DNA of 39,765 bases from Guillardia theta CCMP2712 (Eukaryota > Protista > Cryptophyta). Made by a program: the position numbers and the translations under genes. Below the pieces are notes generated by a model. That model ran no database searches, was not told where the DNA came from, and was given only the letters and a program-made list of their open reading frames with translations. The stretch covers positions 487,349 through 527,113 of the forward strand of contig NW_005434620.1 of the NCBI RefSeq assembly GCF_000315625.1. Direction: 5' to 3'. Below are positions 3,760 to 38,213 of the stretch, in pieces (position 1 is the first letter of the stretch; every line of letters starts with the position of its first letter).

Positions 3760-4420
3760 GGAGGCGACAGTGAAGTCAGGGAGGGTAGGGTATTTTAAGT
3801 GTGGATTGACGTGGTGGGGTAATATTCTAAAAAATTGAAATGTTTGGAGAAAAATTGATATTTTGAGATGAAAATATTTGAACATTTAAACAAAATTGCT
3901 CAGGGCCCGGAGAAGTCCGGTGAAGGCGGCGTATCGTGTCGGAAGGTTTGTTCGCTCACTTGAATCGAAAGTCCGAGCCTCTCAGTCACCCGAGTCCTGA
4001 GTCGGACGCGCGCCGGGGCCCGGCCCGGCCGCCCGGCCGACACTTCATAGCGTTGTCGCTCTCAACTGACCCCTCTGGTTTCCAATAGTTTTCTGTGGGG
4101 GTATCCTTCCACACATGTGAATAGCAAATGGCAGTTGGGGTCTGGGGTGGGTCAGACGGCTGGGAGCTGATTCAAATTGGTTGAGACCTGTTTAAGGGGG
4201 TAGGGTACTTCCTGGTAGCAAATAATTGTACCAACAGTACCAATTTTATGGTACATATTCGAGTACTGTTAGGAAAACTTGTACCAAAATAGTTTATGCG
4301 GTACCTCCCCTGTTCAAACTATGATGCTTTGGACCCACCTGTTTCCCAGTGAAAGTCCCTTCTCCGATGGGGTCAAGTTTTGGACCCTACCCTGCCTCCG
4401 ACCAACATAGACCACCCTTG
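3760..4420. repeat. Intergenic spacer module 1 (AT-rich block, GC-palindromic block, GGGGTA/GTACC-rich block)
   Basis: AT-rich 3790-3900; GC words ccggggcccggcccggccgcccggccg at about 4010-4040; repeated ggggta/gtacc/taccc to about 4420; no credible ORF. Confidence 0.55.
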
Positions 4421-6340
4421 TAGATCAGAGGGAGCTCTCAAGCCTTGCCCCTTCCCTTCCCTGGTTGCATATCCAAGGTTAGCAAGTGAATGTTACGCAG
4501 ACGTGACTCATCTGCAGCAGGAGAGCTCAGACGAGGACAAGCAGAGGCAATCCCTGCAGAATCTGGTGTGAGCGCAGCAGTCTGAAAACATCTCTGTGAT
4601 TGCAAACACATGTAAAGAGGGTTGATCATCATAGATTTTAGCAGCTTGAATAAGGAGTACTCCGCACGGACCGTCCGCTAGTGGCGCTGTACGATGGATG
4701 ACATTGACTCTCATGAGCAATAAGTAGGAAGTCATGAAGCATGTCACGGAGACAGCATGATCTATACTTATTTCATAGGAATCTGCTGCAAAGAGTCGGG
4801 CTTGAGGGCGGTCTGAGCAATATGCAAGAGTATTGCCAAGGCATGTAAAGAGTTTCAAGGAATACCAGTGCATTCATCAAATGGCAGTGATGAGGTACCA
4901 CATGAAGGCATGACTTGCAAATTGATTGCATGTCGTGTTCTATTTCATGACTTACAATCAAGACGCTTTGAGCGACAAAACGATACCCCTTGTAGCATTG
5001 TAAATCATAGTTCATTTCCTTCACCTCGAGTCGAAGCAAGAAATTTTCAAGGTGCTGATATCTTTGTTGTGACTAGACTGACTTGGTGTCAGGAGCAGTT
5101 AATTGATGTTGGATGCGATTGAATCATGCAGACGAAAATGGACATACCCTTTTGAATAAATTTTTCTTCTCGAGTCTCATACCAGAGCTTTCTTGCCTCT
5201 TTCTTTGTAACCTAACATGTACAAAGCATTGGCATTTTCTTACACAAAGTAAACTGAGCCTGACCAGCTTCTCTTATTCGCTGCATTCTCGCCCTTCCAT
5301 CATCCTGATCTTTTCCTCGCTTGACACCCTTGGGCCAATGCGAGTTGCATGCTGCGATATCATCAATTGTTTGGAAGGAACCAAGCGATAAGTGGAACAA
5401 AGCGCTCAGGTGCTATGCAGGCTGCAATGCATCGCCGGCATTCCAACCATATGGATAAGTTTGCCAACTTTGCGCTGCTCATATTACTTGCAGCAAAAGT
5501 CAACCATTCCAGATGATAAGGACAATGTATGAGACTTGCGCAGAAGAATGTGCAAACACGACGGTGAGTGTGCACGATTCCACATATACAAGAATGCTGC
5601 GCAGAAGCATCTACCAATTCCTTGTTTAACCACTCTTTTGATGAATGAGCATCGACTTCTCTAACATGTACATCAGGTCATGCAGGCTCATGTAAAAATG
5701 ATGATGTTGTTAGCAACAACTTGGCTTTGTTTTATTGAAGTACGTTGAAAACATCACCTAGGCCGCTACATATTCCCATGTCCGCTTTGCAACAGTTCTA
5801 AACCACGTATCACCATAAAGTTGTACATCATTCGACTAGTCCGATAACATCTTCATGTAGAGTCTCAGTTTTAAGCACAACGCGGTTTGTCGGAGCGATA
5901 CTGTGACTTGTTTGCCTGGTATGATTACATGTGACATGCTCTCTTACACAATTGAAGAGTATTGTAGAAAATTCAGTCAAGCGGTGCACAGTTCAGCCTT
6001 GCTTTCTTGCTATTCATCAAACATAGTGTATCAAACAGATGTCATCGTGTGGATCGACGCAAAATAAAGATGAACTCGAAGTTCTGTCTGAAAAATGACC
6101 CTTTGCAAGTACTGATGGATCGAGAGCAAGTTCTTGATGCTGTATCATTGAGAAGTAAAATGACAGTCATAAGCCAGTGCTATACGACTCGTATCCATCA
6201 GCTTGAAATATGAACCACTGAGTTTCATTCCATGAATCATCTTTCCTCCCGCATTCAAACTGAGAAACTCAGTGCTTGTCAACTCATGGGCATGGTTTCA
6301 GAGTTTGAATTTCCAGCAAGTTGAGGAAGGACAAGGCAGA
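4420..6340 (-). CDS. Hypothetical multi-exon protein, function unknown
   Basis: Many short minus-strand GT...AG introns separating open, non-repetitive segments (e.g. DDSWNETQWFIFQADGYE, WPKGVKRGKDQDDGRARMQRIRE, LRLEVKEMNYDLQCYK). No recognisable family motif; boundaries approximate. Confidence 0.4.
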
Positions 6341-6459
6341 CAGAAGCGTCAAAGAAAGTTGAGGGTCATCAGGGAAGGTCTGACGAGAGTCTGAGACTCA
6401 TGGACAGGGAAGGATAGGGATGCGCAAGTGCGGAGGGCAGGGAGATGGGGAGGGAGACC

Positions 6460-7210
6460 CCCTCTGCTAAATGTATTTTAAAAGGTACCCATTACAGTAC
6501 CAGACCAAGACCTGTACCCCCCACCCCCCTGTCGCGTCCGTTGGGTTCGAATATTTGAAATACTACCACGCCTACCCATCAGGTTCTGGTACAAATCATT
6601 ACTCCACTATACAAGGGCCTAAGTGATCCTATGCAAAGGCAATAGGAACAACTGTTTACTTATCTAAGCTCTCAATTACCCCCGGTTGCCGTTGAACGGG
6701 CAGCGCTGGAAATGGATTTTCAAACCTTCCAATCCTTCGATTTTTTACTCACACACAATTTTCTACTGGAAAATGCCTGGATCTGGTACAAATCCCAATT
6801 GTCAGCAAGTTCCTTGACCCGACAACGCTATGGCCCTGTGGGCTGCGATCGGACTGGCACGCCGGACGGGGCCGGGGCGGCCGGGCGGCGGCTCAGCGGC
6901 CTGAAGGCTGTCACATTACGCAGTGACGTGAACGAACGGCACACTGAAAATTGAATCATTACATGGTGAACTATGTTACATATTGACTATCAGTATCATG
7001 AGGCTGTCACTGCTGCCCATCGCTGATTGACTCGCCGAGGGTCGCGGACCTGGAATCTTGGCCGCATCTGAGCTTAGTCATCATGTGCTATCCAGCCGTA
7101 GCGCGCTATTCCATCCTGCAGTTGGAAATGTCTCAGTGAGTGCACTGAGTAGGCTTTTACCACTGTCGTGACACTACGATCCTGATCGGATCATGGCTGT
7201 TGCGCCGATG
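6460..7210. repeat. Intergenic spacer module 2 (TACCC/GTACC block followed by GC-palindromic block)
   Basis: ggtaccc, gtaccccccacccc, cctaccc at 6480-6700; gccggacggggccggggcggccgggcggcgg at about 6860-6890; then short palindromic words (gatc, catg, cagtg/cactg). Confidence 0.5.
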
Positions 7211-7213
7211 AAT

Positions 7214-9245
7214 TCACCTGGAGGAGGAGGAGGGAGCAGCAGAGGCCAGCAACCAAGAAGGTGAAGGACGTGTCAAGCTATCAAGCTGCATGTCAAAAAG
7301 CGCAACGCAAGGACTGGTAATGGGCAGCAGCTCACCAGCAGCGTCATTTCCCGGGCGCTCCCTGTAGTGCTTTCTGAGAAGTGCCTCCCATTGTGATAGT
7401 CTCCCGGCTGCACCCTGCTCATGCGCTATCAGCCTTCCTGTCGCTCTTCCCTCGCTCAGTGCTTGCCAGCCATTCGCGTCCTGCAGCAACGGATTCCGCG
7501 AGGACGAGCTTGAGTCGATGGAGCCGACGGCTCCAATCAAGTCCCTCTGGCTCTGATGATCGGTTCGCTGCATCAGTTGAAGGGAAGAGGCAGGTGGGGA
7601 AATCTCACGCTGGATCCTTGCAGCGAGTCAGGATGTTCCAGCATCCGGAGGGTAGTCTTGATGCTGCACCTGTCGAACGGATCTGCGTGAGAGGAACAGG
7701 GAGGAGGAGGCTATCGGCAACCTCATCCTTGAGAGGATCCCCAGAGAGCAGTAATGACGGCAGATGAGAACGGCTGAAAAAAGCTGAAAAGCGACTCCCC
7801 AGCAGTACCAGGCCAGGAGGTTATCCTGGAAGCTAAAGAGAGCGGGTGAATGACCTTCTTCTCAGTTTTCAACATGTACCCGGGCTGCAGCACGCTGGGT
7901 ACAGACCACTCTGCTCGGGCAGGATCCAGCATGAGGAGCACAAAGCCTCCTGGCACGATGAAGATTGATTCCAGGATGGTGAAGTATAGTGGCGTCCTGG
8001 TGCTCCAGTAGTGCAGCGCGATACCGAGAGCACTGCCTGCCATCGTCTGGACGCGGAGGTCGTCAGCGAGCGGGCTTCAAGCACAGAGCCCTGCCAGACC
8101 TGCCCCAGAGAGTGAAAGCCCCACGACATCCTTTCGCACATGACAGCCATCGTAACGAAGGCTCCTGTCGCCGTCATCTCGAAGCTCGATGAGGAATCCC
8201 AGATGAAAGCGCCGACAAGCGCCTGCTCGATCTGTCAAGATGCTCCCATGCACACCTTCTCCTTCACCCCCATCATTGAGTCACCACTCGGCATCCCATA
8301 AACGCTTCCGATCCTTCGGGCCTTCATCATTCATGTCAGGGCTTTCACCTTCCTTGCTAACCAACACCTTCTCATCATTGTAACTGCAAGTGCAAGGCCT
8401 GCTCTGGCGAAAGACAGTGTACAAAGCTACATCCAGGACGAGAGAGTAACAACAGCGATACAGGAAATGCAGAAGGCTGATCTGTTTTCTCACTTTCACG
8501 TCCTGTTAACTCAGATTGTCAAAAAAAAGTACCTTGACCGCGAAATAGGATGCTGGCGAGATGCTGATGGACCTTGAGTACCTTACTACGACCTGGTTGA
8601 GAAGAGTTGGTCAACAGGAATATATCTTCAGTGGAACGTCATCCTTACAGGTAAAGCAAGCAACAGTGTTGTCACGGTGACAGCAATTCCACGGGGATTC
8701 ACAAATGGCTGAATGATATCTAGGTGGCAGCGGTGAGTAAAGGCGTTCGGACGTCGAAACGACAAACCTCCGATAAATGTGAAGAGACTTGGAGGATACC
8801 TGTCACGCCATGAATCAGGGTTCATCAAAATCGGCATAGAAGGAGCATACTCGTATAAGCATCTGTTTAGCAAAGTATCGTCGTTGTTGTTTGTACAGTT
8901 CGTTCGAGGCAAGCTGTACATACTTCCCTCTGAGCAGATTCTGTAAGAAAGTAGTCTCAGTAAGGCATAAGATAATTCATCCCTGTTTCGCTCTCACGTC
9001 CCATTTCATGCAACCTTCTGCCAGCTTGATTCAGTCTCCCCTCTCAGTGAATTTTCATTTTGCCAACGAGACTTTTCTTGGTTCATCTTTCGCTCTGTCT
9101 CAACGACATCTCTCTGTGTAAGTATGCCTGATTCTTTCGCTTGCTCACACTCCCCCTCCCTCCTCTCCTCCCCACTCCTCTCGAAATCTTCATGTCTCTG
9201 CCCACATAGCTCCAAAGTGGTACTCGTGGGCTGCCATGAATTCAT
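7214..9245 (-). CDS. PAP2/type 2 phosphatidic acid phosphatase superfamily membrane protein (divergent motifs), multi-exon
   Basis: Three PAP2 motifs in the correct order: LYTVFRQSRPC (Kx6RP), YGMPSGDS (PSGH), CERMSWGFHSLGQVWQGSVLG (SRx5Hx3Q/D), with flanking hydrophobic segments. Termini approximate. Confidence 0.72.
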
Positions 9246-9269
9246 TTCCACAACATTCAACGGTCTGTA

Positions 9270-9960
9270 ACGTACCGAAGAAACGGATTATCATCACTGT
9301 AACGTTTTATAACTGACTTTGGGTTGTTGACTGAATCCCATGATCACGGTCGAAGGTTATGGACTACCAAGGGTGGGGTCCTTCAACCTTCCTCGTTGAC
9401 CCTACGAAAGGGGGGGTATTTCTTCTAATTTGAAGGGGTGGAGGTGGTCATTGATCACCGTTAAGTTGGATTAGGTAGGTAGGGGGTTGCAGTCAGTGAG
9501 GACTCAATACTATGATATGCCGAAGGGTACTACCGGGGTACCTACCGAGAAGACGGAAGTTCGTCCCTCATGTGAGTAGGGGTATCATCCCATAGTATTT
9601 TGTGTTATTTAGGGGGTAGGGGGTATGATAGTCAACAATAGGATTGGGTAGGGGTGCTGACCCGCAGTGAGAACGGATATCAAAATTCTAAATAGGCTCT
9701 GAAAAATTGGGGGGTGGGGTAGCCAAGATATCGGAACGAAAGGGGGTAGGGTGGTGTGAAACAGAAAAATAGATGGGTATTTTCCTGTTGGTCGGAGGGG
9801 TACAATTGCACCCCAGGGCCCTACGATCGGATCGACAGGAGCCGGGGTAGGGGTCCATCCCCCGAGTGAAGGGGTAGGCTGAGTTGGGGTGGTGAGGTTT
9901 GGTTTTTGGGGTTGTTGGTCCAAAATGCGATGGCAGTGAGGGAGTGTGGGGATGAGGATG
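9270..9960 (+). repeat. Intergenic spacer module 3 (GGGGTA(G)-rich tract)
   Basis: Many ggggta, gggtaggg and ggggtgg words on the + strand (e.g. 9411, 9535, 9611, 9742, 9844, 9871). ORFs here are Pro/Thr-rich noise. Confidence 0.55.
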
Positions 9961-10600
9961 GAGCGAAAGCGAAGTTGGGAGCTCGGGACATTGAGACTTC
10001 AGTTTTTCATGTCGTAGGAAGATCGGACTGACGCAAAGCGAGGATGCATGGAGGCCGCGGCGGAGCTTGTAACCATGCTCGTTGTTTGATGATCGTTCGT
10101 TATATAAGCCTGTACGGGATATGTCGAGATACCTGCAAACTTGATGGCAATGAGGCAACCTGATGAGCAGATATGAACAGAAGCTACTGGATATGCCATG
10201 CAGTGAGCCGAATGAGTTGTGAGGGACTTGTCAGCAAATGTGTGGGGTTGGAAACAGTCTGCTGTAATCAATTAGGAGAGGTGCTGTAATCGAAAAAGAA
10301 TTCCTCTTGGGAGACAATTCAAACATCCCTATAGAACATATGGAGATATAAGAGAATTTCTGCAGTGGCAGACTACTGCTGCGTAGGCATCTAGATTGAC
10401 ATGAGGATAGGGGTTTCGAATGTATAACCAGTTCAGAAACAATTGCGTCTCAAGCACAAGTCAAAGAATTGCAGGGTGCTAAATTGCATTTGCAGCCTCT
10501 TCCAAACAACCTCGCTGCTGAAAGTGGGTGAAAAAGGTTCCAAGGGCCCAGGCTAGAGCCAGGATCTCAAGTGCTGCTACGAAATCTGTACCTCCTGTCT
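9960..10600 (-). other. Possible small or fragmentary coding region, unidentified
   Basis: Gene-like base composition with short open segments (CLIAIKFAGISTYPVQAYIT; SPIFLRHEKLKSQCPEL) that run into spacer module 3. No family motif. Confidence 0.2.
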
Positions 10601-10637
10601 GTCACGGTGAGGAACGAAGGCTGTGCAGGAACTCTTC

Positions 10638-12709: not shown

Positions 12710-12719
12710 TGCAAAGACC

Positions 12720-13860
12720 GTTGGCACCGGGGAGTCCGAAAGCCTATGGGCCGTCGACCTTGACCCCCGGGCCCGGCGGCCGGCTAACTTGAAGGCTTAG
12801 TGACTTGTCAGACTACTAGGCTAGTGACGGACTCCGGGAGTAACACGTAATCGGCCATCGACCCGGATTATCGCTCGTCATGACGGTAGCTGCGATGCCA
12901 TGATCCGCCGGATAGCGGCCCGGCCCGGCCTACTAGGCTAGACTACCGGGCGCGCGTACTACGGTACCCGGTACATGGCCCACCGTCACTGTGACAGTGT
13001 CACAGTCTGGCTTCGTCCGGGCGGGGGGCCTCGCAGGCTCAGCCCGGGCCTGGCAACCGTCCGACCCGGTCAGCCCGGTGTGATCACTGTCATCATCAGC
13101 CCGGCCGGACTGACTCCCCGGTCAGACCCCTGGAAATCACTGACTCGGACCCCGCTCAGTCACTGTCGCACGCCGGGCCGCGCCCCCGGCCGGTGCCCGC
13201 CGCCGCCGCCCCGGCCGGCGAACTTCGAACTCGGAACTTTTAGAACTTTGGAACTTTGAGCTGTTTCCAAGTTTCGCTGCCTGAGCGATCCGAAGTTTCG
13301 CTGCATAGCAAATTTTCTGGAACTTTATGCCAGGGGGGTGGGTAGGCCTTGAACAAGTTGTAGGAACGAAGATTGTGGGGGTGGTCTGAAACCAAAGGGG
13401 GTGATGCTCCTTCGACATTTGGGGTAGTACCTGGGAAAATTGGGGGTAGGGTCCACTTCAGTCAGCACCACCTGATGACTGAAACTTGGGGGTGGGAGTG
13501 TTCAGAATTGTTTGCGAGACCCGGGGGTTGGCACTTCTCCATGGGTAGGGTGGTCTCATTTGTCAGAAATGGTGGGGTGGTGCACTGATAAGGCACTTGT
13601 ACAAGGGTCTATTGTTGCGGGGTAGGGATGCATGGGTAGGGTACTGAAAAAGGGGCCACTACAGGGTATTTCGAGTCGGAAGGAGGGGTGCATGAAATAG
13701 TTGGTTGGACAATGGCGAGAGCGGTGGTAGGGTGCTAGAAAAAGTCAGGAGTAGGGGTAGGAGTAGGGGTGGGTAGGGAGTACACTGGGGGTACATCACA
13801 GGGGAGGTGGGTTGGTGGGTCGCAGAGGCGGCATCGCAATGTTGCGCCGGGGCGTAGCGG
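12720..13860 (+). repeat. Intergenic spacer module 4 (GC-palindromic block, GAACTT cluster, GGGGTA block)
   Basis: 12720-13220 is rich in cccggg/ggcc/ccgg/gtcac/gactc; gaact(t) occurs five times at 13220-13256; aagtttcgctgc occurs twice (13269, 13293); ggggtaggg tract 13330-13800. Confidence 0.6.
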
Positions 13861-13899
13861 AGGTGAGATGATGGCGAATAAGAAGACGAAAACGAGGAT

Positions 13900-13912
13900 A
13901 AAGATGATGGTC

Positions 13913-13951
<39 letters not shown>

Positions 13952-14463
13952 GAGATTATGATGGAGATGGAGATGATGGAGATGGATATGATAGAGATGG
14001 AGATGGAGATGATGGTGATGGAGGAGATGATGGAGATGATGATCACGATGATGATGACGGAGATGATGGAGGTGGAGATGGAAATGGAAATGGCGATGAT
14101 GGTGGAGATGATGATGATGGTGGAGACGATGATGGTGGAGATGATGGAGAAGATGATGATGGAGACGATTATGGAGATGATGATGGAGATGGAGATGGAG
14201 ATGGAGATGGAGATGGAGATGGAGATGGAGATGGAGACGATGAAGATGGAGGAGATGATGGAGACGATGATGGTGGAGATGATGGAGATGATGATGGAGA
14301 TGGAGATGATGATGGAGATGATGATGACGATGGAGATGATGATGGAGATGGAGATGGAGATGAAGATGGAGATGATCACGATGAAGGTGGAGATGATCAC
14401 TATGGAGAAAAAAGAGAAGACGATGGAGATGGAGATGGAGATGGAGATGATGATATTATGATG
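13900..14463 (+). repeat. Compound microsatellite (ATG)n/(GAGATG)n
   Basis: About 560 bp of atg, gag atg and acg atg triplet units. Confidence 0.95.
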
Positions 14464-14659
14464 AGCAAACACTATGAGCAAGAGAAGGATTTTTTGGACT
14501 GCCACGGCCGAAACGCTGTGCGAGGGAATGGGGGAATGGGAATGCTGTCCAGAAAAGAGGTCGCAGGCTTGATAAAGATCTTGGTATGCAAGTCATTATC
14601 TCCATGTTCAATCAATCTAGTATTTCACATGCTCAACGTCTTGTCTTGCGTCTGAAGCC

Positions 14660-17600
14660 ATGTTAGTGAAGGGAGTGGGAATTCCATTTCCCCGACAGAT
14701 AACACTAACTCTGTTAAGATATCTGTGAACTTCCTTGACCAGTGCCCCACAGAAAACCGTCGCTCTCACCAGAGCCAGGGTCGCTAGCAGGAGCTTCCTA
14801 GCGACAGGTGTAGAGAAATGAATGAAGACCTTTTTCATTGTCGAATTTTCAGAACTGACTTGTAGTGTGCCAGCGTCCAAGATCAGACTTGAAAATGCTC
14901 GATCATACTCAAGGAAGACAACGATTCCGGATGTTGCTGGAGCCTCCTTCAACATTTGCTCCCAACAAAATCGCAGGCCTCGGATGGTCTTCTTCAGTCA
15001 GCAGAGACGTTTTGCTTCTACCTTCAAAGTAACACATTTGACATCTTGAACGCTGAAGTGATTGTTTTGGTTGAATTGCTTTGTGCAGGAGGAGTATGAG
15101 AAGCATGTTGCAGAACGTGCAGCACAAGGGATCGTTCCCAAGCCGCTTAGCCCCAAGCAATGCAGTGACCTTGTAAGCCATTAAGTTTTCGCTGCTATTG
15201 ATGATCGGCCTGCATGTGACCTGGATGCATCTTGCAGGTCGAACTTCTCAAGAATCCACCAAAGGGTGAGGAGGAGTATCTCCTGAATCTCCTCAAGACA
15301 CGGGTAATATTTCTGGCTTCAATTTTCATTCTTTTTTAATGCTGATCCAATCTCTCCATAGGTTCCTCCCGGTGTTGATGAAGCTGCTTATGTAAAGGCA
15401 AGCTTCCTTACCTCGATCGTGAAGGGTAACTTGTTACAGAGTATCAATTACTCTGTTTTGACGTGTCGATTCTTAGGATCTGTCTCCTCGCCTTTGATCA
15501 ACAAAGCACAGTAATTGGAACTATGTGCATTGATGCTTTCATCTGATATCATTCTCGTCCTTGTCGAACAGGGCTATCGAAATTCTTGGAACCATGCAGG
15601 GTGGATACAACGTCGAAACCCTGATTTCTGCACTTGATGATGCTCAACTCGCGCCTGTTGCATCGAAGGTTTGAATTTTCCGCTTTCCTCTGCTTGGTAA
15701 CTTTCGACTAGGCTCTCAAGAAAACATTACTCCTCTTTGATGCTTTCTATGACGTGGAAGCTAAGGCAAAGGCAGGCAACAGCTTTGCAAAGGAAATCAT
15801 ACAGTCATGGGCTGACGCCGAATGGTTTCTCTCAAAACCAGAGGTGCCAAAGAAGATCACAACTACCGTTTTCTTTGTCAAGGGAGAGACGAACACAGAC
15901 GATCTCTCGCCAGCTCCCGATGCTTGGTCAAGACCAGACATTCCACTCCATGGATTGGCCATGCTGAAGAATGCAAGGGAGGGAATCATCCCTGACAAGG
16001 ATGGCGAAATTGGTCCTATGAAGCAGATTGAGGAGTTGAAGAAGAAAGGACACCCTCTGGCTTACGTAGGAGATGTTGTTGGTACTGGTTCTTCCAGGAA
16101 GTCTGCTACCAATTCAGTGTTGTGGTTCATGGGGGAGGAAATTCCTTTTGTGCCAAACAAGAAGTCTGGTGGTGTTTGCATCGGAGGAAAGATTGCTCCC
16201 ATTTTCTTTAACACCATGGAGGATGCAGGTGCCTTGCCAATCGAGATGGATGTCACAAAGATGAACATGGGCGATGTGATTGACATTTATCCATACGAGG
16301 GAGTTGTGAAGAACAATGCAACTGGAGAAGTCTTGTCTGAATTCAAGCTCAAGACTGAAGTACTGTTGGATGAGGTTAGAGCAGGCGGAAGAATTCCTCT
16401 CATCATCGGCCGTGGATTGACATCAAAGGCCCGAAAGTCTCTCAACTTGGAGCCATCCAAAGTTTTTCGACTTCCAACTGGTGCCTCAGAGAAGAAGCCG
16501 GCAGGCTATACACTTGCTCAGAAGATCGTTGGCAAAGCTTGTGGCGTCGAGGGTGTTTCGCCAGGCACTTATTGTGAACCCGCGATGACTACTGTTGGCT
16601 CGCAGGATACTACAGGCCCGATGACTCGTGATGAATTGAAGGATTTAGCTTGCCTTGGCTTCAGTGCTGACTTGGTTATGCAATCTTTCTGCCATACTGC
16701 AGCATACCCCAAGCCCGTTGATGTTGTCACACATCACACTTTGCCAGATTTCATCCGTACTCGTGGAGGTGTCTCCCTTCGACCTGGAGATGGAATCATC
16801 CATTCATGGCTCAACAGGATGCTTCTTCCTGATACGGTCGGGACTGGAGGCGATTCTCATACTCGATTCCCAATTGGTATCTCCTTCCCAGCTGGCTCTG
16901 GCCTGGTAGCTTTTGCTGCCGCAACCGGCGTGATGCCCCTTGATATGCCAGAGTCGGTGTTGGTCCGATTCAAGGGCAAGAAGCAGCCAGGAGTTACGAT
17001 CCGTGATCTTGTACATGCCATTCCGTACCAGGCGATCCAGGATGGACTTCTCACAGTCGAGAAGAAAGGAAAGAAGAACATCTTTTCCGGACGCATTCTC
17101 GAGATCGAGGGTTTGCACAACATGACAGTTGAGGAAGCATTCGAAATTTCGGATGCCTCTGCCGAGAGGAGTGCAGCCGGGTGCACAATCCAGGTTGACA
17201 AGGACAAGATCATTGAGTACCTGAACTCGAACATCACGATGCTCAAGTGGATGATTAGCGAGGGATATGGCGATGCCCGTGCGATGGAGCGAAGGATTGC
17301 GTCCATGGAAGAATGGCTCAAGAATCCAGTCTTGCTCAAAGCCGATCCTAAGGCGGAGTATGCTGCCACCATCGAGATCGACCTTGATAAGATTAAGGAG
17401 CCTATTCTCTGCGCTCCTAATGACCCCGACGATGCCAGGCTGTTGTCTCAAGTTCAAGGAGACAAGATCGACGAAGTGTTCATTGGATCATGCATGACCA
17501 ATGTCGGACATTTCCGAGCGGCTGGCAAGCTGCTTCGCGAGTTTACCGGCCAGATCCCAACCAGGCTGTGGATTGCGCCCCCAACAAAGATGGATGCGGG

Positions 17601-17991
17601 TGTGCTGACTGAGGAAGGTTACTACTCCATCTTTGGACGTGTGGGCGCTCGTATCGAGATGCCAGGGTGCTCTCTCTGCATGGGTAACCAAGCTCGAGTC
17701 GGCGACAGCACCACCGTCGTCTCCACCTCAACCAGGAACTTCCCCAACCGTCTTGGCAAGGGAGCGAATGTCTACCTTGCCTCCGCAGAGCTTGCAGCTG
17801 TCGCTTCCATCCTTGGGCGTCTGCCAACTCCAGCTGAGTACTTGGAGTATGCGGCGAAGATCAACTCGACTGCCGCTGACACCTACCGCTACATGAACTT
17901 TGACAAGATGGAGAGCTACGTGAAGAGTGCGGCGAAGGTTGAAATCTCAGCGGAAGCTCGAGAGGCGGCAAAGAAGCATTTCTCGAAGTAG
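14660..17991 (+). CDS. acnB: Aconitate hydratase B (bacterial AcnB type) with probable mitochondrial presequence
   Basis: Exons spell [55 protein letters not shown], then one long exon 15712-17991 with [45 protein letters not shown], Fe-S cysteines FIGSCMTN and [10 protein letters not shown], and [10 protein letters not shown]. Six GT-AG introns between 15029 and 15711. The leader ends [10 protein letters not shown]. The exact start codon (14660-14984) is uncertain. Confidence 0.96.
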
Positions 17992-20030: not shown

Positions 20031-20059
20031 ATGGCGCGCGAGCATTCCCCATACCATGG

Positions 20060-20270
20060 CGCTGGGGAAGCTCTATATGGGGGCAAAGTAGTGGGGTGGG
20101 GGTGGGTCATTTTACACATGTCAAACGGATGGGGGTGGGTCCATAACCCGGCGTAGAGTTGACATGGTGTAAATCCATTTGATAGGAGGGGTCCAATCTC
20201 CTCTTGGTGATTTTAGGGGGTAGGGGTGGTAGAGATACATCATAGTAAGGTGGGGGTAATAAAAATGAAT
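20060..20270 (+). repeat. Intergenic spacer module 5 (short GGGGT-rich tract)
   Basis: gtggggtgggggtggg, gggggtgggtcc, ttagggggtaggggtgg, gtgggggtaa between the kinase and CRAL-TRIO genes. Confidence 0.45.
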
Positions 20271-20349
20271 GTCGGGGCAAACAAGGGAGGAGAGGAGGAG
20301 GAAGAGGAGGGGGGAAGGGGGGGAGGATGAAGAGGAGGGAAGGAGAAAA

Positions 20350-22768: not shown

Positions 22769-23233
22769 GAGACATGGATGATGACGGAAGGTAGAGAAGA
22801 GGGAGGGCGGAAAGCAGAGAAGAGGGAGGGCCTTCGATCAAGACTTCTCAACCTCTTCTCAAGAGATCGCCATTCTTTCTCCTCACTACCACCGTTACCA
22901 GTTGTTTCCCAAACAGAGAGGTGCAGAGCCTATAAACCCTTGGTGCCCGGATATGTTCAAGAAACCAACGTCCCCTCTGCCCTTTCTCCCTCTTTGTCTT
23001 TCTGCCGGTCGGCTAGTCTATCGTTTTGAGAGTTTTGACGGACTCAATGGCTGAAAAGCTCTATTATTTCGTGTCTTTCTGTCTAGCAGTCCGTCTTTTT
23101 CCTTGCTTCGACCAACAAAAGCAATCCTCGTCAATCGATAAACTTCAGCTCAGCTTCCCTTCTACTTCATCTCCTCCTCCTCCTCCTCGTCCCTTCGCCT
23201 GCTCCTAGTCGCCATTCCGATCATGCTCTAAGA

Positions 23234-24970
23234 GTATATATATATATTAACTTCGTGATTATAACATACTCTTACACTTTTTCTTCGTGATTATACCACA
23301 AAGAATACTACTATTATACTTAGTACCCTTTGCGTATGATAATATTCTCATATCATTACTCTAACAATTTCCTTATAACCTAGTAAAAGTTTAATATTCG
23401 CTATCAAACCCTTACACACTATAAATAGCCCGTTTATGGACTGTAAGTAATACCTATGTTATTTAATAATAAACTATATATAGAATATACACCATACTAA
23501 CAAGTCTTAGTAGTTATTCGTGTGTAGTCTTATAAAATTTCTTCGTGACTCAATTAGACTTATCCCCACACACTAAAACTAACCTCATTACACCTTTTAA
23601 CATCTTCAATTAATATACTTTCATTTCACATTACACCCTTATAATACTATAAAATCCCTTTCAAATCTAAATCTTACCATATTTCCATTATTGTGTTTAA
23701 AAATGATTTAATCTAATAAATAATTACTTATACCTTACTTAATTATGACCGATTCTATGGCACTCTTCTATAGATACCCCCATAATTATAAAAATATTTC
23801 TATCATTGACGATGATATCTCCAAAAATCTTAAACTTCTCTATCAACAAAACTATCAATCTAAATTTGAACACTCTAAAGAACATTCCATCGGTCAATAT
23901 TCCGGACCTAGTTCTTGGACAGAACAACTACAATATTATGATATTAACTCATATGATGATATCAAATCTATTCAATTTGATTCAATACCCTCTAAACCCC
24001 TTCATCCTGAATTAGGCAAAATCAGATTCATTAATAAATACACCTTCGGTATTGATACTGACGAAATTCAACATATACTTCTTAATAATCGTCTCACATT
24101 CCTTAAAATATTTCAATTCCGTATTGAAAATAATAAAGCAGTTGCTACCATTCTTAATGACCTTAAAGTCTTTCTCAAAATTATTAAAACAGTTCTCGGT
24201 GATGAACATGAACTCTCTCGTAAATATCAAAGACTTACCTATGACTTTGATTATATCATCGTCCGTCAAATTGAAGGAGATAACACCCTTAATCAAAAAG
24301 AAAAAGCCAATTGGATCTCTTTCCCTACTATCCTTCAACTTAGAGACTCCCTTGAACATGAATGGCGCACTCTACTACAAAATAAACCTATGCTTAAAGA
24401 TACTAAAGCTGCAGATAAACTCATTTGGACAAAACATTATGCTATGCTCTTACTCAGCTGTTATACTCTAACTCCCCCTGTACGCCGTGAGCTATTCGGA
24501 ATCAGATTTCAACAATTTGAAAATAATGACTTTGTCTATATTCCTCAAGATATTAACAAACCTGTTGAATATGTCCTTTATACTATCAAAAAACTTCATG
24601 AACCTATTCAATATCCTGTAGGGTATGACGAACAATCCAGTTATAAACTATCACAACTTATCCGAGAATCTTATCAACTCTATCCCAGAACATTCCTTTT
24701 CCCTACTGTCACTGATATCAATAAACAAGCACAACCTAATACTATAGCTCTGTACTTTCAAAAACATGTTTGTGATAAAGTATACCTCTCTATTAATATA
24801 ATTCGTTCCAGCTTCATCACCTGGAGAAATCAAAATCCTTATTATACATATAATCAACGTAAAGTTGATGCTAATAAAATGAGAGATGATATTCTTGTCC
24901 ATCTTCAATACTATAACAAAGTACTTGACCCTGAACTAACCAAACTCAAAGAACAACAAGAAACACGTGC
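23234..24970 (+). mobile_element. AT-rich foreign island (probable fragment of an endogenous virophage/Polinton-like virus or other tyrosine-recombinase element)
   Basis: Abrupt switch to AT-rich, G-poor sequence at a (TA)n run (23235-23247); intronless 1.2-kb reading frame; abrupt return to host spacer sequence near 24970. Confidence 0.7.
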
Positions 24971-25127
24971 CGGAGCAACCCCCCTATTGAGTTTTTCCAC
25001 CCCACCCCCTAGCCATCCCACACACCTACCCTATTGTACCCCCACCTACATCATTTTATCTGGCTACCTTGTATCCAGTGGCAGTACCCCTATATTGACC
25101 TTTCAAAGTACCCCTATGTTTGACTGA
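23745..25127 (+). CDS. Tyrosine recombinase/integrase-like protein (last about 50 aa are read-through into spacer DNA)
   Basis: Motifs in YR order and spacing: LLLSCYTLTPPVR (Arg I), YTIKK (Lys), LSQLIRESY...FLFP, SINIIRSSFIT (HxxR-like), ANKMRDD, LQYYNK (nucleophile Tyr). Confidence 0.75.
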   Translation: MTDSMALFYRYPHNYKNISIIDDDISKNLKLLYQQNYQSKFEHSKEHSIGQYSGPSSWTEQLQYYDINSYDDIKSIQFDSIPSKPLHPELGKIRFINKYTFGIDTDEIQHILLNNRLTFLKIFQFRIENNKAVATILNDLKVFLKIIKTVLGDEHELSRKYQRLTYDFDYIIVRQIEGDNTLNQKEKANWISFPTILQLRDSLEHEWRTLLQNKPMLKDTKAADKLIWTKHYAMLLLSCYTLTPPVRRELFGIRFQQFENNDFVYIPQDINKPVEYVLYTIKKLHEPIQYPVGYDEQSSYKLSQLIRESYQLYPRTFLFPTVTDINKQAQPNTIALYFQKHVCDKVYLSINIIRSSFITWRNQNPYYTYNQRKVDANKMRDDILVHLQYYNKVLDPELTKLKEQQETRAGATPLLSFSTPPPSHPTHLPYCTPTYIILSGYLVSSGSTPILTFQSTPMFD

Positions 25128-26100
25128 AACTCGTTTTACTGTACTACCCTACCCCCTTTGAATAGCACCTGAGAGTCCCCATATCACTAACACGACCTTG
25201 TCTGCGCGACCCACCCTGCAGAGATATATGATTATCAAAGTTGAAATTGAACTTTCTTTGAGAACTTTATATTTGAAAATTAGGAGAAGATTTCTAACTT
25301 CCGTATGTGAATCGGTCGATCCTACACCTCCGCTGTGACACCTTCAGGTACCCTACCATGATTACAGATAAAACCCTCTCGTTCACCATCCACCACCCCC
25401 TCTTTGTACTTCCAAATCACCCCTTTGATTATCACCCCACCACCCCACTCGACCGGAGATACAAGTTGATTATTATGAAATATCATAGTACTGATTTTTA
25501 ACTTAACTTCGAGTAAAGGAAATAGTACCGTACGCCACTGTCACTGCTGCCCGGGCCTGGCCCGGCCGGGCCCGGCCGGCGCGGCCGCGGGCCCGCAGCC
25601 GCGGCCCCGGCGGGATGACGCCGAACTTGAACGCGCGGCCCGGGCCTGCCGCAGTGCGGCCAGCGGCCTGCCACTGACTCCGACCGAGCCGTGTGACACT
25701 TTAACAGTTGGCAGTGCCGGCGGCCCGGCCCGGCCCGGGGCCCCGGCGCCAACCGTTGAACCGTTGAATTGAGAGCCGGGGCCCGGGGAGCCTGAGTCTA
25801 GCCGGGCCGCCACTGGCACAGGCTGGCCGCCTCGGACGGGCCACGCCGGTTGAAGTTAGGCCGAGGCGGTCCGACCGGGCCCGGGACTCCGGCCCTGATA
25901 CTCAGCCCGGCAAAGTTAAGCCGCTCAGTCACTGCGGCGGACTCGAGGCTGGCATGTGACTCCGAGTGACTCAGAGCGGCCAAGCCACCGATGCCGGGAC
26001 CGGGGGCCCCCGGTGAACTTCCGAGTTCAAGACTCGAGTCACCTGACTTTTTGTGAGCCGTGGCACGTGACGGGCGGCCGCCCTTGTGGCCTCCAGTGGG
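24970..26100 (-). repeat. Intergenic spacer module 6 (TACCC block, AACTT words, GC-palindromic block; mirror orientation of module 4)
   Basis: cctaccc/gtacccc/ccacccc 24975-25450; acttaacttcgag at about 25500; dense ccggg/ggccc/ccgcgg plus gactc/gagtc and aagtt/aactt 25530-26100. Confidence 0.6.
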
Positions 26101-26120
26101 TTGAGGGGGGATGAGGACCT

Positions 26121-27319
26121 TTAGAATTGCGCCTGTCTGAACTTGACCAACTTGGCAATGCTGCAACAGAAGACGAGAGGGGAGGAGAAGCGAGAGAGAG
26201 GGGGCGGGCGGGCGGGGGGGGGGGAGTGAGTAGAGACAGAGAGAGAGGATGAGGNNNNNNNNNNNNNNNNNNNNNNNNNNNNNNNNNNNNNNNNNNNNNN
26301 NNNNNNNNNNNNNNNNNNNNNNNNNNNNNNNNNNNNNNNNNNNNNNNNNNNNNNGCGGATCAGCAATGGTCTTCACTTTCTAGGGAGTCCAGATCCACCC
26401 ACCTCACCGAATGATCTTTGCTGTCGGCGACCAGCAGAAACTTCCCATCCAGGCTTATGGCAACGCCAGTGGGTTCGTAGAACTGTGCATTGGTACCAAT
26501 ACCATCATTCAAACCCGAGACCCCATTCCCAACAAGATCATGACACGTATCTGGAATCTGCCAGTCCACATGCTTGATCGAGTGGTGGGACTTACCGCCA
26601 ATATAGGCATGGCTCCCAACTAGGTCCAACCCAGCGGGAATCATCGTTGGAGACCCCGCCGGGACAGCCACGATGGAACTCACAGCTCCCGTCTGGAGGT
26701 TGATCTTTCGCATGTGATCCGTGTCGACAACAACAAGAGCGAGGGAGGGAGGGAGAGAGAGAGAGGAAAGGAGAAAAAGAGAAAGGAGATGAGGAGAGAT
26801 AGAGGGGAGGGGATGAGGAAAGGAGTAGAGAGAGGTGGGAGGGGAGAGGAGGGGATGAGGAGGGGAGGGGTCCACGGGAAAGACAGGCAAGCTCAGCATC
26901 AGATGGGACAGGAGACGGAAGAAGGAAGTAGCAGAGGAGGGGTCCACGGGAAAGACAGGCAAGCTCAGCATCAGATGGGACAGGAGACGGAAGAAGGAAG
27001 TAGCAGAGGAGAGAGGGGCAGGCAGGAAGAAAAATGGATAGACTGCGTACAATTTGTTTCGAAGTTGTGTTGAGCAGATGTTTTAAATCATTGTCTGTGT
27101 ATTGATAGTTGCTCACGCTTTACTTCTCTGCGCAGAACAGCAGATATCATGTCGATTCTTCAATTTCTTTGCTTCTTCCTTTTCGTTTTCTCCCTTCCCA
27201 CACTTGCATTGCGGCCCTCCAGGCTTCCTGCTCCGAAAGGCTCTGCGGCACCCAAGCACTACGAGGACATCCATCCTCTGAGGTTTGTTCATATCTTCGG
27301 CAAACATACGCACTGGCAC
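26121..27319 (-). CDS. NHL-repeat (beta-propeller) protein, partial, interrupted by an N gap
   Basis: LVGNGVSGLNDGIGTNAQFYEPTGVAISLDGKFLLVADSKDHSVRWVDL is a typical NHL repeat; also DTDHMRKINLQTGAVSSI. Exon structure incomplete. Confidence 0.75.
26865..27011. repeat. Exact 72-bp tandem duplication
   Basis: ggggtccacgggaaagacaggcaagctcagcatcagatgggacaggagacggaagaaggaagtagcagagga occurs twice (tccacggg at 26871 and 26943). Confidence 0.95.
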
Positions 27320-27456
27320 TGATCTGCCGAGACGTTCGTCGACAAGACTTGTGACTATTGTTGATAATCTTTCGTGTGAAGTTGTGATGCGTTGGTCTAG
27401 TAAACTCTTATAACTTGACCTTCATATATGCACATAACATCTATCTTACAAATCAC

Positions 27457-30400: not shown

Positions 30401-30774
30401 GAACGCAGCACAGAGTAGCAGTTCTGCCACTTGTCTGCGCTCGGCTGGACATTTACAGCCATGTTTCCGTATGCATGGGGGAACCAAGATTTCGAGAGGG
30501 CGATGTAGAGCCTGTCTTGCGTCAAGATCAACCTTCTCCGCACCCAGTCTCCATGACAGTCGAGTTTGTCGGCGGTGTCGTCACGAATTCGCGACTCCTG
30601 GGGCACTGCGCTGGCCATCATTTCATCTTCACAGAAGAACTTGAAGCTCGAGAACGATCCTGATTTCATCAAGTTCCTTGCCCTTCTGATCCCATCCTTG
30701 TTGCCGTTTGCAGCTGCTGGCTTTGATCCAGAGCCTGTCCTGTTCAAGTGAACTGCTGCACCTGCAGCAAACAT
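27457..30774 (-). CDS. Single-domain (6TM) voltage-gated cation channel with N-terminal PH domains and C-terminal EF-hand/coiled coil
   Basis: S1 YFQGVMAALIIANFFLIIAQT; S2 VDLAFTIIFTI|ELAINIF; S3 WFDLTIITVSLI; S4 KHLRILRTFRVIRIFGRLRQLR; S5 AFIIGIIVIAIYCTLGVEVF; P-loop FGTFFQAYYTMFAVIAYGYWPD; S6 SYVCIVVLVLLQ|VMVAVLLENF; EF-hand DVDRTGSISYSEL; PH motifs KWQNCYSVLR...DMKRWTKVL. First in-frame ATG at 30774. Confidence 0.9.
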
Positions 30775-30776
30775 CG

Positions 30777-30826
30777 TTGCAATCTCTGTTTGCAATCTCT
30801 GTTTGCAATCTCTGTTTGCAATCTCT
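30777..30826. repeat. 13-bp tandem repeat (ttgcaatctctgt), about 3.8 copies, just 5' of the channel ATG
   Basis: ttgcaatctctgt ttgcaatctctgt ttgcaatctctgt ttgcaatctct. Confidence 0.9.
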
Positions 30827-31089
30827 CGCTCAAGCGAGGAGCTCCAGTCAATCACGAGTGAGACCTCTCTTCATGTCAGCAAAGCTGTGAATGTCGGCGA
30901 TCTACGAGCTGATTGCACCCGCAACACCTCAAATGTTACGAGAAGTTCAAGGTAGAATCAAGTCCAGCCATAGAGTTTGGTAATCACTGCCATGAACAGA
31001 ACGAAGTGGACTGGAGTGAGTGATGGCCAATGGCAGCGTGAGGGAGGAGGAGGAGGAGGAGGAGGAGGAGCAGTTGGGGAGGGGGAGTG

Positions 31090-31500
31090 GGGGAGGGAGG
31101 GTGGTCGGTCGAGGGTAGGGATTGTCCGGGGGAGAGAGGATTCGGTGCTGCTCGGGGCAAGTAAATCTTCTGAGGGGGTAGGGTGAATCACCCCACCAGT
31201 AAGAGGAAAAGTTGATTTTTTCTTGCGGGAGATCTATCTCAAGACTTCCATTTTCTCGATAAACGTAATAAGTAAAATGGAGATAGATTATGCCTTACAG
31301 TCTTCACACAGGCCTTTGATGGTAGTCGGGGGGTAGTCCTATCCCTCTATAAGTTGCTAGTAGTTCTCCATGCCACCAAGGGTGCAGAGGATATCTTTCA
31401 ACTCCGAAGTAGGGGTGGTCATTATAGACCCCACCCCTACCTTTCCACTGTGAAAAGGTGGGAGAGATAGGGGAGGTCCACTGTGGGTGGGGTTTCGTGA
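31090..31500 (+). repeat. Intergenic spacer module 7 (GGGGTA-type)
   Basis: gagggtaggg, gggggtagggtg, ggggggtagtcc, ccccacccctacc. Confidence 0.45.
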
Positions 31501-31559
31501 CTTTCGGAAGTCATATCAAGGAGAAGAAAAAAAAAAAGAGGCGGGGAGTAAAGTATGGT

Positions 31560-32990
31560 TGGAACCGACGTGCGCCAAGGTGGTTGTGAGCTCGACATCA
31601 GAGCAGAGGGCAAGAGATCATGGTGCTTGTATTCATATGGACCCGGGCCTGACTGAATCAATACACGACACAGAGTACAGTGATGTGATTTCAGGTGTTC
31701 AAGACCACTGGAAGTTGTAAAGGTCGCAGGATGCTTCTTTGGCTAAGAAGTGGACATTACCAGACCAGGACTCACGGACTGTAGCCGGGGAAAGATCGTG
31801 AAAAGATGATCGGAATGGAATGATTGACAGTCTGGTGTCAGTGCGAGATAAACGCTGTGCCGAGCAAGAATCCACCCACAGGTGGATGGAATGCTCGCCA
31901 GGCTTTCAAGGAGCCCATAGTTCAGATGTAGCACTGCTGGACCATGAGACTGTTTCCGGAAATCACCACGACAAACCTTCACATGTATGGAACAGACAGT
32001 AATGTGAAAATGATGTCATCACCAAGCACTGCTCATTAAAAACATTTTGCTTCCTTTACCATAATTGCACCATGATTTGTGGTTTTAACTACTTAAGTTT
32101 GGAAGCATAAAGAAAGAGCTACAGTTTAAAAATGTGGAAGAATTGCTCTACCTCTCTATCCCTTGAATACTCTATAATTTAGTTAGCGAACCAGGAGGCA
32201 TATTCCTCAGGAGTGATGATATCGGGGTTGCCGTGCCTGAAACAAAGATGTCAAACATCCACTAGCAAACGATTCGAGCAGGTCTTGCTTACTGAAAAGG
32301 GGTGGTCTCCGGCTCGCAGTTGGCGACCTCCATGTCTGGCTCAGCATAGACGTTGTAGTCCCATGCAGGATACTCGTAAAGGCCGAGAAAGCGAGCTGTA
32401 CATTAAGTCAGTCAGGGGTAGTACAACCAGGAAGCGTCAATGTAAATCCGCGTGACGAATGAAAACAAACAGCGATAGTATTCATCATTCCCCTTCGTAG
32501 AGGAGGAGCTGCTACGTCGATATTGGAAAATCTCATGAAACTTTGTGATGCTGGGAGAGGAAACGACCGAACGCTAGCAGTCTTGTGAAACGGACATTGA
32601 AGCAACCCAACACAAGCATATCGTTTGTAAGAGACGCCATTCAAAACACGCACAAGACACAACGATTGGGTGTAAAGTCGAAGTCCAAGCGCCAGGGTGA
32701 CTCGCGTGAACATCATCACATAGCAGGTGACAGCGTTGATGACAGAGGAAGCAAGCTTGAGATCATTCAGCAACAAACTCAAATATACAGCATGAATCAA
32801 ATAAATGTGTTCCTTTCCATGATGACAAACTGTCAATAGGGAAAATGCGAGAATCACATTCTGAGAGCATGTATCGTGACAATTGCTGGAGACAAAGCTG
32901 GTCCAAAAAAAAGCGACATAGCAGCGGGCGAAAGAATATCACATTGAAGGCAATAGTGAAGACTAAATGAGACAAGGCTGAAATTCATGT
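31560..32990. other. Possible hypothetical multi-exon gene, strand unresolved
   Basis: Non-repetitive, gene-like composition with several short ORFs on both strands; no motif recognised. Confidence 0.2.
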
Positions 32991-33189
32991 TCGGAGATCA
33001 GGGAAGCGAAAACAATGGACTTGGGATGAAGCGAGGGCTACGGGAAGAGGGAGTGGAAGGGTTGGAGTGCGGCGATAGAAAGGAATCTTGGCTGCCCACT
33101 GTGCATACCGGGGATGAGCTTGGTGAGCATGCTTTGCGAAGAGTCAAGGCGAAGGGGTTTTCAAAAACTACTTGTATGATTGATAAAAT

Positions 33190-33720
33190 AGAATGTACGG
33201 ATGCTTTTGAAAAATATTATTAAACACTACCAGATAGTGATTGATATAGTAAAATTTGTATGAAATATAATATAGTTAATTATTTTAAAACCCAGTTCCA
33301 GAAGTCCGCTGTCGGGTTCGAGTGCCCGGGCCCGATGACCCGGGCCCCAAAAAAAAATGCGTAAAAGTAAAATAAAAAGAAACAATCATTGCTCTGAGGG
33401 GAACCTGCAACCCGGTGGTATGCCCCCTACCACTGATACCCCCTTGCTGGGTCTAGGATCATAGGAAGGAGCTGCACCCACCCCTAGTTTCCCCAACATT
33501 CCCTAGCAGGGGTACCTGTGTGAGGAGATGGAGTAAAGCAAAGTTGGAAGGCGCATAGGGGTAGGGTAGGTAGGGTGGTTGTGGGTCGAAATGGACTCAA
33601 AGTAGGGGGTACTTAATGTCGAGGAGTGGGGTGTAAAATGGTATGGAGGGGTGGGAGGGTGGACGAAAAGGCTCATCGCTCAGTATATGCGATGTACGCG
33701 AGTAGGGGAAATTCGGGTAT
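33190..33720 (+). repeat. Intergenic spacer module 8 (AT block, short GC palindromes, GGGGTA block)
   Basis: AT-rich 33190-33290; gcccgggccc and cccgggcccc at 33324-33348; ggggtacc, ggggtagggtaggtagggtgg, gggggtac to about 33720. Confidence 0.5.

Positions 33721-38152: not shown

Positions 38153-38213
<61 letters not shown>

Follow-up and report, generated by a model that had tools for sequence, protein, structure and literature searches.

GC-rich intergenic tracts of Guillardia theta are built from C/G-centred palindromes and probably represent piled-up transposon excision scars

Introduction

A 39,765-nt stretch of the nuclear genome of Guillardia theta CCMP2712 (the window) contains eight blocks, termed modules M1 to M8 (5,528 nt in total), that appear to be written in a small vocabulary of short words such as GGGGTA, CCGG, and CAGTG. 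A preliminary description of the window considered several processes that might have written them, ranging from telomerase-like synthesis to selection on chromatin elements. What kind of process, then, generates DNA that shares its words from place to place without being copied? In this study, the window was analyzed together with contigs from read runs X1, X2, X6, and X21. Run X6 is a metagenome, whose joints could stem from another organism, and it diverges by ~4% from the window in the aligned stretch. We found that the GC-rich tracts in the modules follow one symmetry rule and that two of them abut the ends of a 2.8-kb multicopy element. We consider it probable that a cut-and-paste DNA transposon with GGGGTA-rich ends left the tracts behind as scars that piled up over many excisions.

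Results

The modules share words and are composite

Words in the eight blocks were counted and compared with 300 dinucleotide shuffles and 300 shuffles within 100-nt tiles. GGGGTA occurred 32 times (8.9 and 10.7 in dinucleotide and tile shuffles, respectively), CCGG 67 times (35 and 31), GGCC 58 times (34 and 31), CAGTG 31 times (10 and 11), and AACTT 29 times (10 and 11); GAGTC (19 vs 9), GTCAC (19 vs 10), and GTAC (37 vs 19) were likewise in excess. None of the shuffles attained any of these eight counts, and the count of CCCGGG was matched by 2 of 300 and 1 of 300 shuffles. Because these words had been picked after being seen, a leave-one-out test on 5-mers was also run. Six of the eight modules exceeded 100 of 100 of their own shuffles and all non-module windows of equal length, M7 was marginal (1 of 100 shuffles; 1 of 75 windows), and M5 failed (14 of 100 shuffles; 16 of 151 windows). 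The shared vocabulary that had been proposed is thus clear in six modules. As had also been stated, the modules could not be aligned linearly, the best blastn match being 63 nt at 76% identity, between two GC tracts (243 nt at 61% with laxer scoring), and the polar layout reported at 12720-13860, with its mirror at 24970-26100, was found as described.

The modules are composites of a GC tract and/or a G-rich block, up to two different things each, and clear GC tracts are present only in M1, M2, M4, M6, and, small, M8. The eight blocks are real, as the preliminary description held, with two corrections: the G portions of M1 and M2 belong to the multicopy element, and the open reading frame (ORF) of a truncated recombinase continues in frame through the first ~160 nt of M6.

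GC tracts consist of palindromes centred on a single C or G

The five tracts are as follows; S denotes a C or G centre and W an A or T centre, and counts are given against shuffles.

3900-4045, no strand assigned: putative scar tract GC1, unique, abutting the left end of the element; S centres 24 vs 10.1; unique X1 and X2 contigs stop at 4074.
6833-7210, no strand assigned: putative scar tract GC2, abutting the right end of the element; S centres 38 vs 15.8.
12720-13303, no strand assigned: putative scar tract GC4, including the AACTT zone; S centres 90 vs 30.0; 67% of bases covered vs 26%.
25530-26100, no strand assigned: putative scar tract GC6, the densest; S centres 121 vs 38.7; A/T centres 13 vs 14.4; 80% of bases covered vs 32%.
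33290-33350, no strand assigned: putative scar tract GC8, small; S centres 8 vs 3.0.

The tracts are composed of odd palindromes around a single C or G, and GAGTC, GTCAC, CAGTG, AACTT, and CCGGG all fit this rule, each having two bases on one side of a C or G and their inverse on the other; the words of the proposed vocabulary are cases of one symmetry. Altogether, 281 S-centred palindromes were counted (~100 in shuffles), whereas W centres (51 vs 47) and loops of 2, 4, or 5 were not enriched. The arms extend to 4-6 bases, with 32 arms of 4 (5.9 expected) and 13 arms of 5 (1.9 expected). All 16 arm types exceeded expectation, 12 of them with z >3, and 46-80% of tract bases lay within S-centred palindromes (20-32% expected). 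In five gene regions used as a control, z ranged from -2.6 to 0.8; the signal was absent from six of the eight G blocks and weak (z ~3) in those of M3 and M6. Among the 16 even 4-mers, only CCGG and GGCC were enriched (even enrichment, 1.2-1.3), as a by-product of the odd units.

The spacing between centres is also ordered. Considering centres with A/T in the arm, a peak was observed at 4 nt (26 vs ~12), and direct repeats in the tracts peaked at lags of 5-8, 10, and 13. Complete units of the form xyz-S-inverse-S-xyz (again with A/T in the arm) were found 11 times at 9 sites in 1,740 nt, compared with 0.19 expected and reached by none of 300 shuffles; the remaining 36,263 nt contained five. 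There was one such double unit of 4 bp and none of 5, 6, or 8 bp, and none was A/T-centred. Double units of 2 bp (14 vs 1.47) were considered as a second duplication length and rejected, given that spacing 3 was not above its neighbours (14 vs ~12). The 60 nt next to the element side had the highest palindrome density or GC content in 4 of 4 tracts (density in three, GC in three).

Directly after M4, at 13860-14460, lies a (GAT/GGA)-type low-complexity array whose ATGAT units also score as G-centred odd palindromes; it was excluded from the tract counts and masked in the double-unit count.

M1 and M2 contain the two ends of a multicopy element

4046-6832, no strand assigned: 2.8-kb multicopy element, delimited by contig depth, contig breaks and loose ends, and 13-bp terminal inverted repeats (TIRs) with CA..TG termini.
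4046-4420, plus strand: left subterminal G block; GGGTA three times forward vs once in reverse, with the words GGGTA/GGTAC pointing inward.
6460-6832, minus strand: right subterminal G block; GGGTA inward four times vs none; z 2.2, 4 of 200 shuffles.

Between ~4045 and ~6830, contig depth in X1, X2, and X6 rose ~10- to 55-fold over single copy. At the right end, depth was 1400-1633 vs 67.5 in X1, 82-93 vs 5.9 in X2, and 127 vs 7.2 in X6. We read the copy number as roughly 10-30, contig depth giving no exact count. The inverted repeat at 4046 and 6832 is perfect over 13 bp, with termini 5'-CA..TG-3'. The G blocks of M1 and M2 are thus the inward-pointing ends of one multicopy inverted-repeat element, and the earlier remark that the modules do not look like transposon copies was wrong for these two. 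The two subterminal regions have words in common and do not align beyond the 13 bp; the inward ratios of GGGTA (3:1 and 4:0) compare with 0:2 in the 2-kb element body. The window's copy looks non-coding. A TIR 22-mer gave no hits in metagenome contigs.

In some copies, 358-368 nt are missing from the right subterminal region (6338-6707), and internally deleted subfamilies therefore exist. Indels within the element (at 5168, 5373, 5889, and 5555) were not counted, since each could be a scar, slippage, or a deletion. RNA reads of run X21 fell on the element body in two oppositely oriented patches, 4500-5200 and 5700-6200, with a poly(T) loose end before 5710; no protein family was detected in that body. 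These reads may derive from any copy, and none of the listed runs is recorded as RNA.

Flanks differ between copies and tracts differ in run X6

Other copies of the element were followed through read-run contigs, in which left and right flanks are not paired. For the right flank, 15 of 17 loose-end rows were listed, and two rows with a mixed consensus and the X6 row were omitted. Among the rows listed, seven right flanks, each distinct and on a single contig, could be read along with one internal junction, and all eight differed. Each of these junctions carried 2-10 S-centred palindromes per 30 letters, ~35 in total when counted by eye, compared with ~6 from the window median. At the terminus, two single-contig left flanks were listed, and one of them fits the scar pattern.

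Moreover, two X2 contigs showed G-centred inversions within the TIR, a place for which the original sequence is known. One reads AGC-G-GCT-G-AGC and lies at the left end; the other, at the right end, reads CTA-G-TAG. In each, one centre is a G though the adjoining target base is a T.

The tracts themselves are not constant. An X6 contig over GC2 aligned at 6936-7725 with 34 substitutions and 63 gap letters, followed by 165 different letters, so that GC2 has other letters left of 6936 in X6. Another X6 contig departs from GC4 at 12722 and rejoins at 13307. The complete double unit at 6950-6960 is two letters shorter in the X6 contig, which could reflect a plain deletion or another repair outcome of the same old insertion.

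Solo G blocks resemble the element ends

Six G blocks lie apart from the element.

9270-9960, plus strand: solo G block M3, single copy, with a weak scar signal; GGGGTA 10 vs 0; S centres 30 vs 17.4.
13304-13860, plus strand: solo G block M4, starting with CATAGC like the element end; z 4.1 under the element-end model.
20060-20270, plus strand: short G block M5; leave-one-out 14 of 100, element-end model 18 of 200; not significant alone.
24970-25529, minus strand: solo G block M6, in mirror orientation; GGGTA 7 vs 0; z 2.5.
31090-31500, plus strand: G block M7, marginal; leave-one-out 1 of 100, element-end model 13 of 200.
33351-33720, plus strand: solo G block M8; z 3.5 under the element-end model.

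When a word model was built from the element ends, four of the six solo blocks scored above at least 199 of 200 shuffles. The reverse model, built from the six solo blocks, picked out the element ends and not the element body (left end 4046-4420: z 4.3, and 3.7 on the other strand). M4, M6, and M8 share one polarity, with the tract outside and the G block inside, and the CATAGC start of M4 coincides with the point at which the X6 contig rejoins. M3 contains one complete double unit, at 9507. The simplest reading, which we mildly favour, is that the six solo blocks are relic ends of related families, with M3 likely a relic element end, M4 likely a relic left end, and M6 likely a relic right end; that the solo blocks alone are a promoter-type or otherwise selected motif is plausible but less likely. 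A giant aconitase-carrying element spanning M4 to M6 was considered and rejected: the two have no common terminus, and only GC-run matches of 8-9 nt.

An excision model reproduces the tract statistics

A palindrome paired up to one central base is a known mark of a transposase-made flank hairpin that has been opened off-centre. We propose that a transposase like those of the CACTA elements or the wider CMCT clade would insert with a 3-bp duplication (xyz). At excision, a nick one base inside the element would yield a flank hairpin with the element's terminal C (G on the other strand) as its tip. Once host enzymes had cut this hairpin open, a few bases away from its tip, and rejoined the ends, the product would be either xyz-S-inverse or the complete xyz-S-inverse-S-xyz, and each event would add up to ~8 bases plus one C or G. 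Tens of such events at one spot beside resident ends could build unique, GC-rich tracts of 60-600 bp. CACTA elements carry subterminal motif arrays, and the GGGGTA/GGTAC words would be candidate subterminal transposase-binding motifs.

Fourteen models and six refined ones were simulated. RAG-type hairpins yield even palindromes; in the simulations, even or A/T-centred counts came out wrong for RAG-type tips, for plain duplication, and for hAT tips that followed no target rule. In contrast, an element-derived tip with a 3-bp duplication gave an S-odd enrichment of 2.76 (2.99 observed), a W-odd enrichment of 1.12 (1.21 observed), a GC content of 0.69 starting from 0.48 (0.66 observed), and a spacing-4 peak of 1.8 (1.8 observed), and its C/G profile around centres agreed at distances 1-8. 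This rise in GC needed no selection, and ~86 events sufficed for 600 bp. Within these simulations, the best fit was obtained with a hairpin tip that is the element's own terminal C/G. As the preliminary description held, no tract is a copy of another, and piecewise writing by break repair, one of the processes it considered, is probable; the details of its mechanism are not supported.

Several observations weigh against this excision reading. The element termini read CATAG, not CAC. At the window's copy, no target duplication of 2-10 bp was present, even when end shifts were allowed, and in a search for a transposase there, none of 21 six-frame fragments (at least 45 aa) reached the Pfam cut-off; nor was a transposase found elsewhere in the material analyzed, which consisted of the window and the read-run contigs. 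The second left flank (X2, place 4045) has no such palindrome and is not GC-rich, and the two TIR scars are single low-depth contigs seen as 30-letter ends. Parameters of the simulations were set by hand. The simulated arms are too long (arm 2 makes up 64% observed vs 39% simulated), and double units are overshot (6.3 observed vs 19 simulated per kb); the excess of double units with C/G on both outer sides (8 of 11; 4.8 expected) is also what would be seen if the tip were flank-derived and the target 5 bp long. As for the solo blocks, they do not align with the element, much of the word-model signal is strand-symmetric, M5 and M7 fail the element-end model, and the G blocks of M3, M5, and M7 have no clear tract.

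Alternative explanations

The alternative that survives best invokes the same scar process with the textbook geometry of hAT elements, in which the tip is the last flank base; it calls for a hAT5-like element with a 5-bp, C/G-bounded target, and we regard it as unlikely. According to the available text of the sources, the centre of Ac/Ds P nucleotides is the complement of the flanking base (PMC5873905), and hAT5 families with 5-bp duplications exist (PMC12730594). The 11 double units agree in part with such a target, the outer base being C/G in eight and A in three. Simulations of this target, however, gave an alternating spacing, with troughs of 0.2-0.5 at odd distances (0.9-1.0 observed), and an alternating C/G profile of 0.20, 0.66, 0.37, and 0.88, where 0.31, 0.48, 0.53, and 0.70 were observed. 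A flank-derived tip is further disfavoured by the two TIR scars, both of which show G where the target base is T, and without the C/G target rule it would enrich A/T centres ~2.5-fold. The 2-bp double units were dropped as an argument against a flank-derived tip, spacing 3 not being raised.

Outward growth of the tracts from resident ends, through repeated abortive one-ended cutting, hairpin opening, and rejoining without full excision, would account for the lack of a duplication, for the polarity with the tract outside, and for the rise toward the element end, as well as for the GC2 allele of X6 being common distally and different proximally. This explanation nevertheless seems improbable: six simulations of it predicted element-biased chained centres (0.53-0.64), whereas 52:54 was observed, and the spacing-4 peak is left without a reason.

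It is more improbable still that the blocks are selected host elements (promoters, insulators, or origins, with G-quadruplexes (G4) and GC hairpins) on which transposons prefer to land. When judged by eye, several G blocks are followed closely by a gene start, with M5 within ~10-30 nt from a possible minus-strand start codon, and GGGTAG is richer in the solo blocks (up to 8) than in the element ends (1 each). Such a function does not account for a symmetry rule obeyed by all 16 arms. The palindromes have one-base loops, which cannot form ordinary hairpins. The G4 element and CpG-rich hairpins suggested in the preliminary description fare no better, in that a canonical four-run G4 motif is present in only two of the eight G blocks and the tracts are depleted in CGCG (12 vs 19.8 expected) and GCGC (11 vs 19.7 expected). 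The tracts, moreover, turn over in run X6.

A fourth explanation assigns the hairpins to the tyrosine recombinase of a Polinton-like or giant-virus-derived element, which would mobilise elements without a target duplication. A recombinase-like gene does adjoin M6:

23745-24965, plus strand: AT-rich gene for a tyrosine-recombinase-like protein, which module 6 truncates beyond about residue 409.

The gene lies in an AT-rich island (23228-24965; GC 0.24-0.36). A full-length relative of 526 aa was found at 98%, and the G block of M6 takes the place of the last ~117 residues. R247, K283, R354, and Y390 are invariant in 31 relatives, of which only one has a Phage_integrase match (E 0.0095). There are 288 relatives at E up to 0.001, some on giant-virus-type contigs, where the neighbours include topoisomerase II, poly(A) polymerase, and an Elp3-like gene. 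Two relatives were found in Hanusia phi. Look-ups of the recombinase gave no loci in metagenome contigs, in viral contigs (queries A1, P0002, and P0005), or in phages, and no PDB hits. In the available text of PMC12220804 and PMC4642659, Polinton-like integrases leave no duplication, and G. theta has Polinton-like viruses that carry them. Against this, a duplication is what the 3-bp double units suggest, the gene itself is cut by a G block, and no tract or G block lies to its left. At seven related viral loci, no tract was present (the best window reached a z of at most 3.4, compared with 10 here) and GGGTAG occurred at 0-0.05 per kb. A search with a gapped word pattern returned 10 viral loci with a best-window ratio of at most 2.3, the two inspected being ordinary coding repeats. 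The viral relatives lack both words and tracts; the gene is read as a bystander, and we consider its involvement very improbable.

Finally, sloppy telomerase-like addition at breaks, or mis-assembly, is hardly credible: the G blocks are indeed strand-polar and G-rich, but TTTAGGG (2 vs 1.3 expected) and TTAGGG are not enriched and there is no tandem array beyond short 12- and 20-nt doublets, while one X1 contig covers 6807-13804 with 0 differences, so that M3 and most of M4, which this continuity check covered, are not assembly joins.

Other features of the window

Between the modules, Pfam finds kinase, aconitase, PH, EF-hand, and RCC1 genes (6 of 13 ORFs with hits). The aconitase gene (14900-17991) encodes a bacterial-type aconitase B (GUITHDRAFT_95798) and has introns at its 5' side followed by one 2.2-kb exon; 744 of the 745 residues encoded by the exon at 15754-17988 are identical to the Guillardia theta CCMP2712 protein. 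An Rfam scan of positions 1-35600 gave no matches. A 72-nt perfect tandem duplication in intron-like surroundings is present at 26864-27011. By eye, an exon-intron stretch near assembly gaps is duplicated in inverted order (37217-37765 vs 37765-38330), which might reflect either a fold-back in the assembly or a true rearrangement, and an additional inverted copy of ~36410-36475 is seen at ~38755-38830.

Discussion

Excision footprints are usually seen singly; here, they have apparently accumulated until they make up at least 1.7 kb within a 34-kb stretch. Given that the tracts are unique to each locus, alignment-based repeat finders would miss them. If the excision reading is true, cut-and-paste transposons create GC-rich intergenic DNA from scratch and leave a countable record of their jumps. 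A more far-reaching conjecture, which we put forward tentatively, is that an unclassified CA..TG transposon family repeatedly returns to the scar tracts at its own ends and so makes a sizeable part of G. theta intergenic DNA. Its flank hairpin would carry the element's terminal base, each jump writing a C/G-centred palindrome, and the outcome would be a self-feeding, V(D)J-like generator of GC-rich islands that are turned over between strains. The literature searched contained no account of such G. theta tracts, of piled-up footprints, or of the geometry of CACTA footprints; older CACTA literature was not covered by it, and that geometry may be in print.

How, then, do the element and its tracts compare with known systems? 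TTTAGGG is possibly the ancestral telomere repeat in cryptomonads, as far as the available text of PMC3622300 goes, and the G. theta nuclear telomere repeat itself was not found in the literature searched. Unlike an interstitial telomeric repeat, the modules have no tandem TTTAGGG-type units. They also differ from Polinton-like viruses, in which, according to the accessible text, capsid, ATPase, and integrase genes are enclosed by TIRs hundreds of bases long: here the TIR is 13 bp, the G blocks are non-alignable, and of that gene set only the truncated recombinase-like gene was seen, the scan for capsid genes having covered part of the window's ORFs.

The tracts are closest in form to the footprints of Ac/Ds (hAT). 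In the available sections of PMC5873905 and PMC2921059, these are short inverted insertions about one unpaired base, with arms mostly of 2-4 nt and microhomology joining, for which a hairpin model has been given. In Ac/Ds, any flank base can supply the centre, as its complement, and 8 bp are duplicated, whereas here the centres are C/G only and 3 bp is implied; the footprints here are also piled into tracts hundreds of bases long. No 8-bp duplication is present at the window's copy, and the spacing peak at 7, which 8-bp C/G-edged simulations do show, is absent. The hAT centre rule is disfavoured by the C/G profile and the two TIR scars, while a 5-bp C/G-edged target suits 8 of the 11 double units. 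Reading the CATAG end as that of a P element was considered and rejected, as there is no 8-bp duplication.

With regard to family, the CMCT clade (EnSpm/CACTA, Plavaka, Chapaev, Transib, and ESTA) is described in the available part of PMC12730594 as having 5'-CA..TG-3' termini and 2-5-bp duplications, of 3 bp in EnSpm and 2-3 bp in PlavakaB, which has CATCA ends. The element resembles CMCT/EnSpm in its CA..TG termini within short 13-bp inverted repeats and in its repeated subterminal GGGTA words at both ends. Unlike EnSpm/CACTA and PlavakaB, it ends in CATAG, not CAC or CATCA. No 2-5-bp duplication is seen at the window's copy, the 3 bp coming from the scars only, and no fragment of that copy (0 of 21) reached a Pfam cut-off, where the clade has a DDE transposase marked by C(2)C and H(3-4)H motifs. 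Membership in CMCT is accordingly not established, there being no duplication at the window's copy, no CAC end, and no transposase.

In the available text of PMC5499845, hAT, Transib, RAG, and Muta1 all form flank hairpins. The proposed process would share with V(D)J coding joints, Transib, and Muta1 the hairpin in flank DNA, its opening by the host, and the junctional additions. It would differ from RAG/Transib in its symmetry: even palindromes were enriched 2.8-fold in simulations of that geometry, compared with the 1.2-1.3 observed, from CCGG and GGCC only. If the excision reading is true, it also predicts how a CACTA-like transposase would cut, with the first nick one base inside the element, and this chemistry can be compared with that of hAT and RAG.

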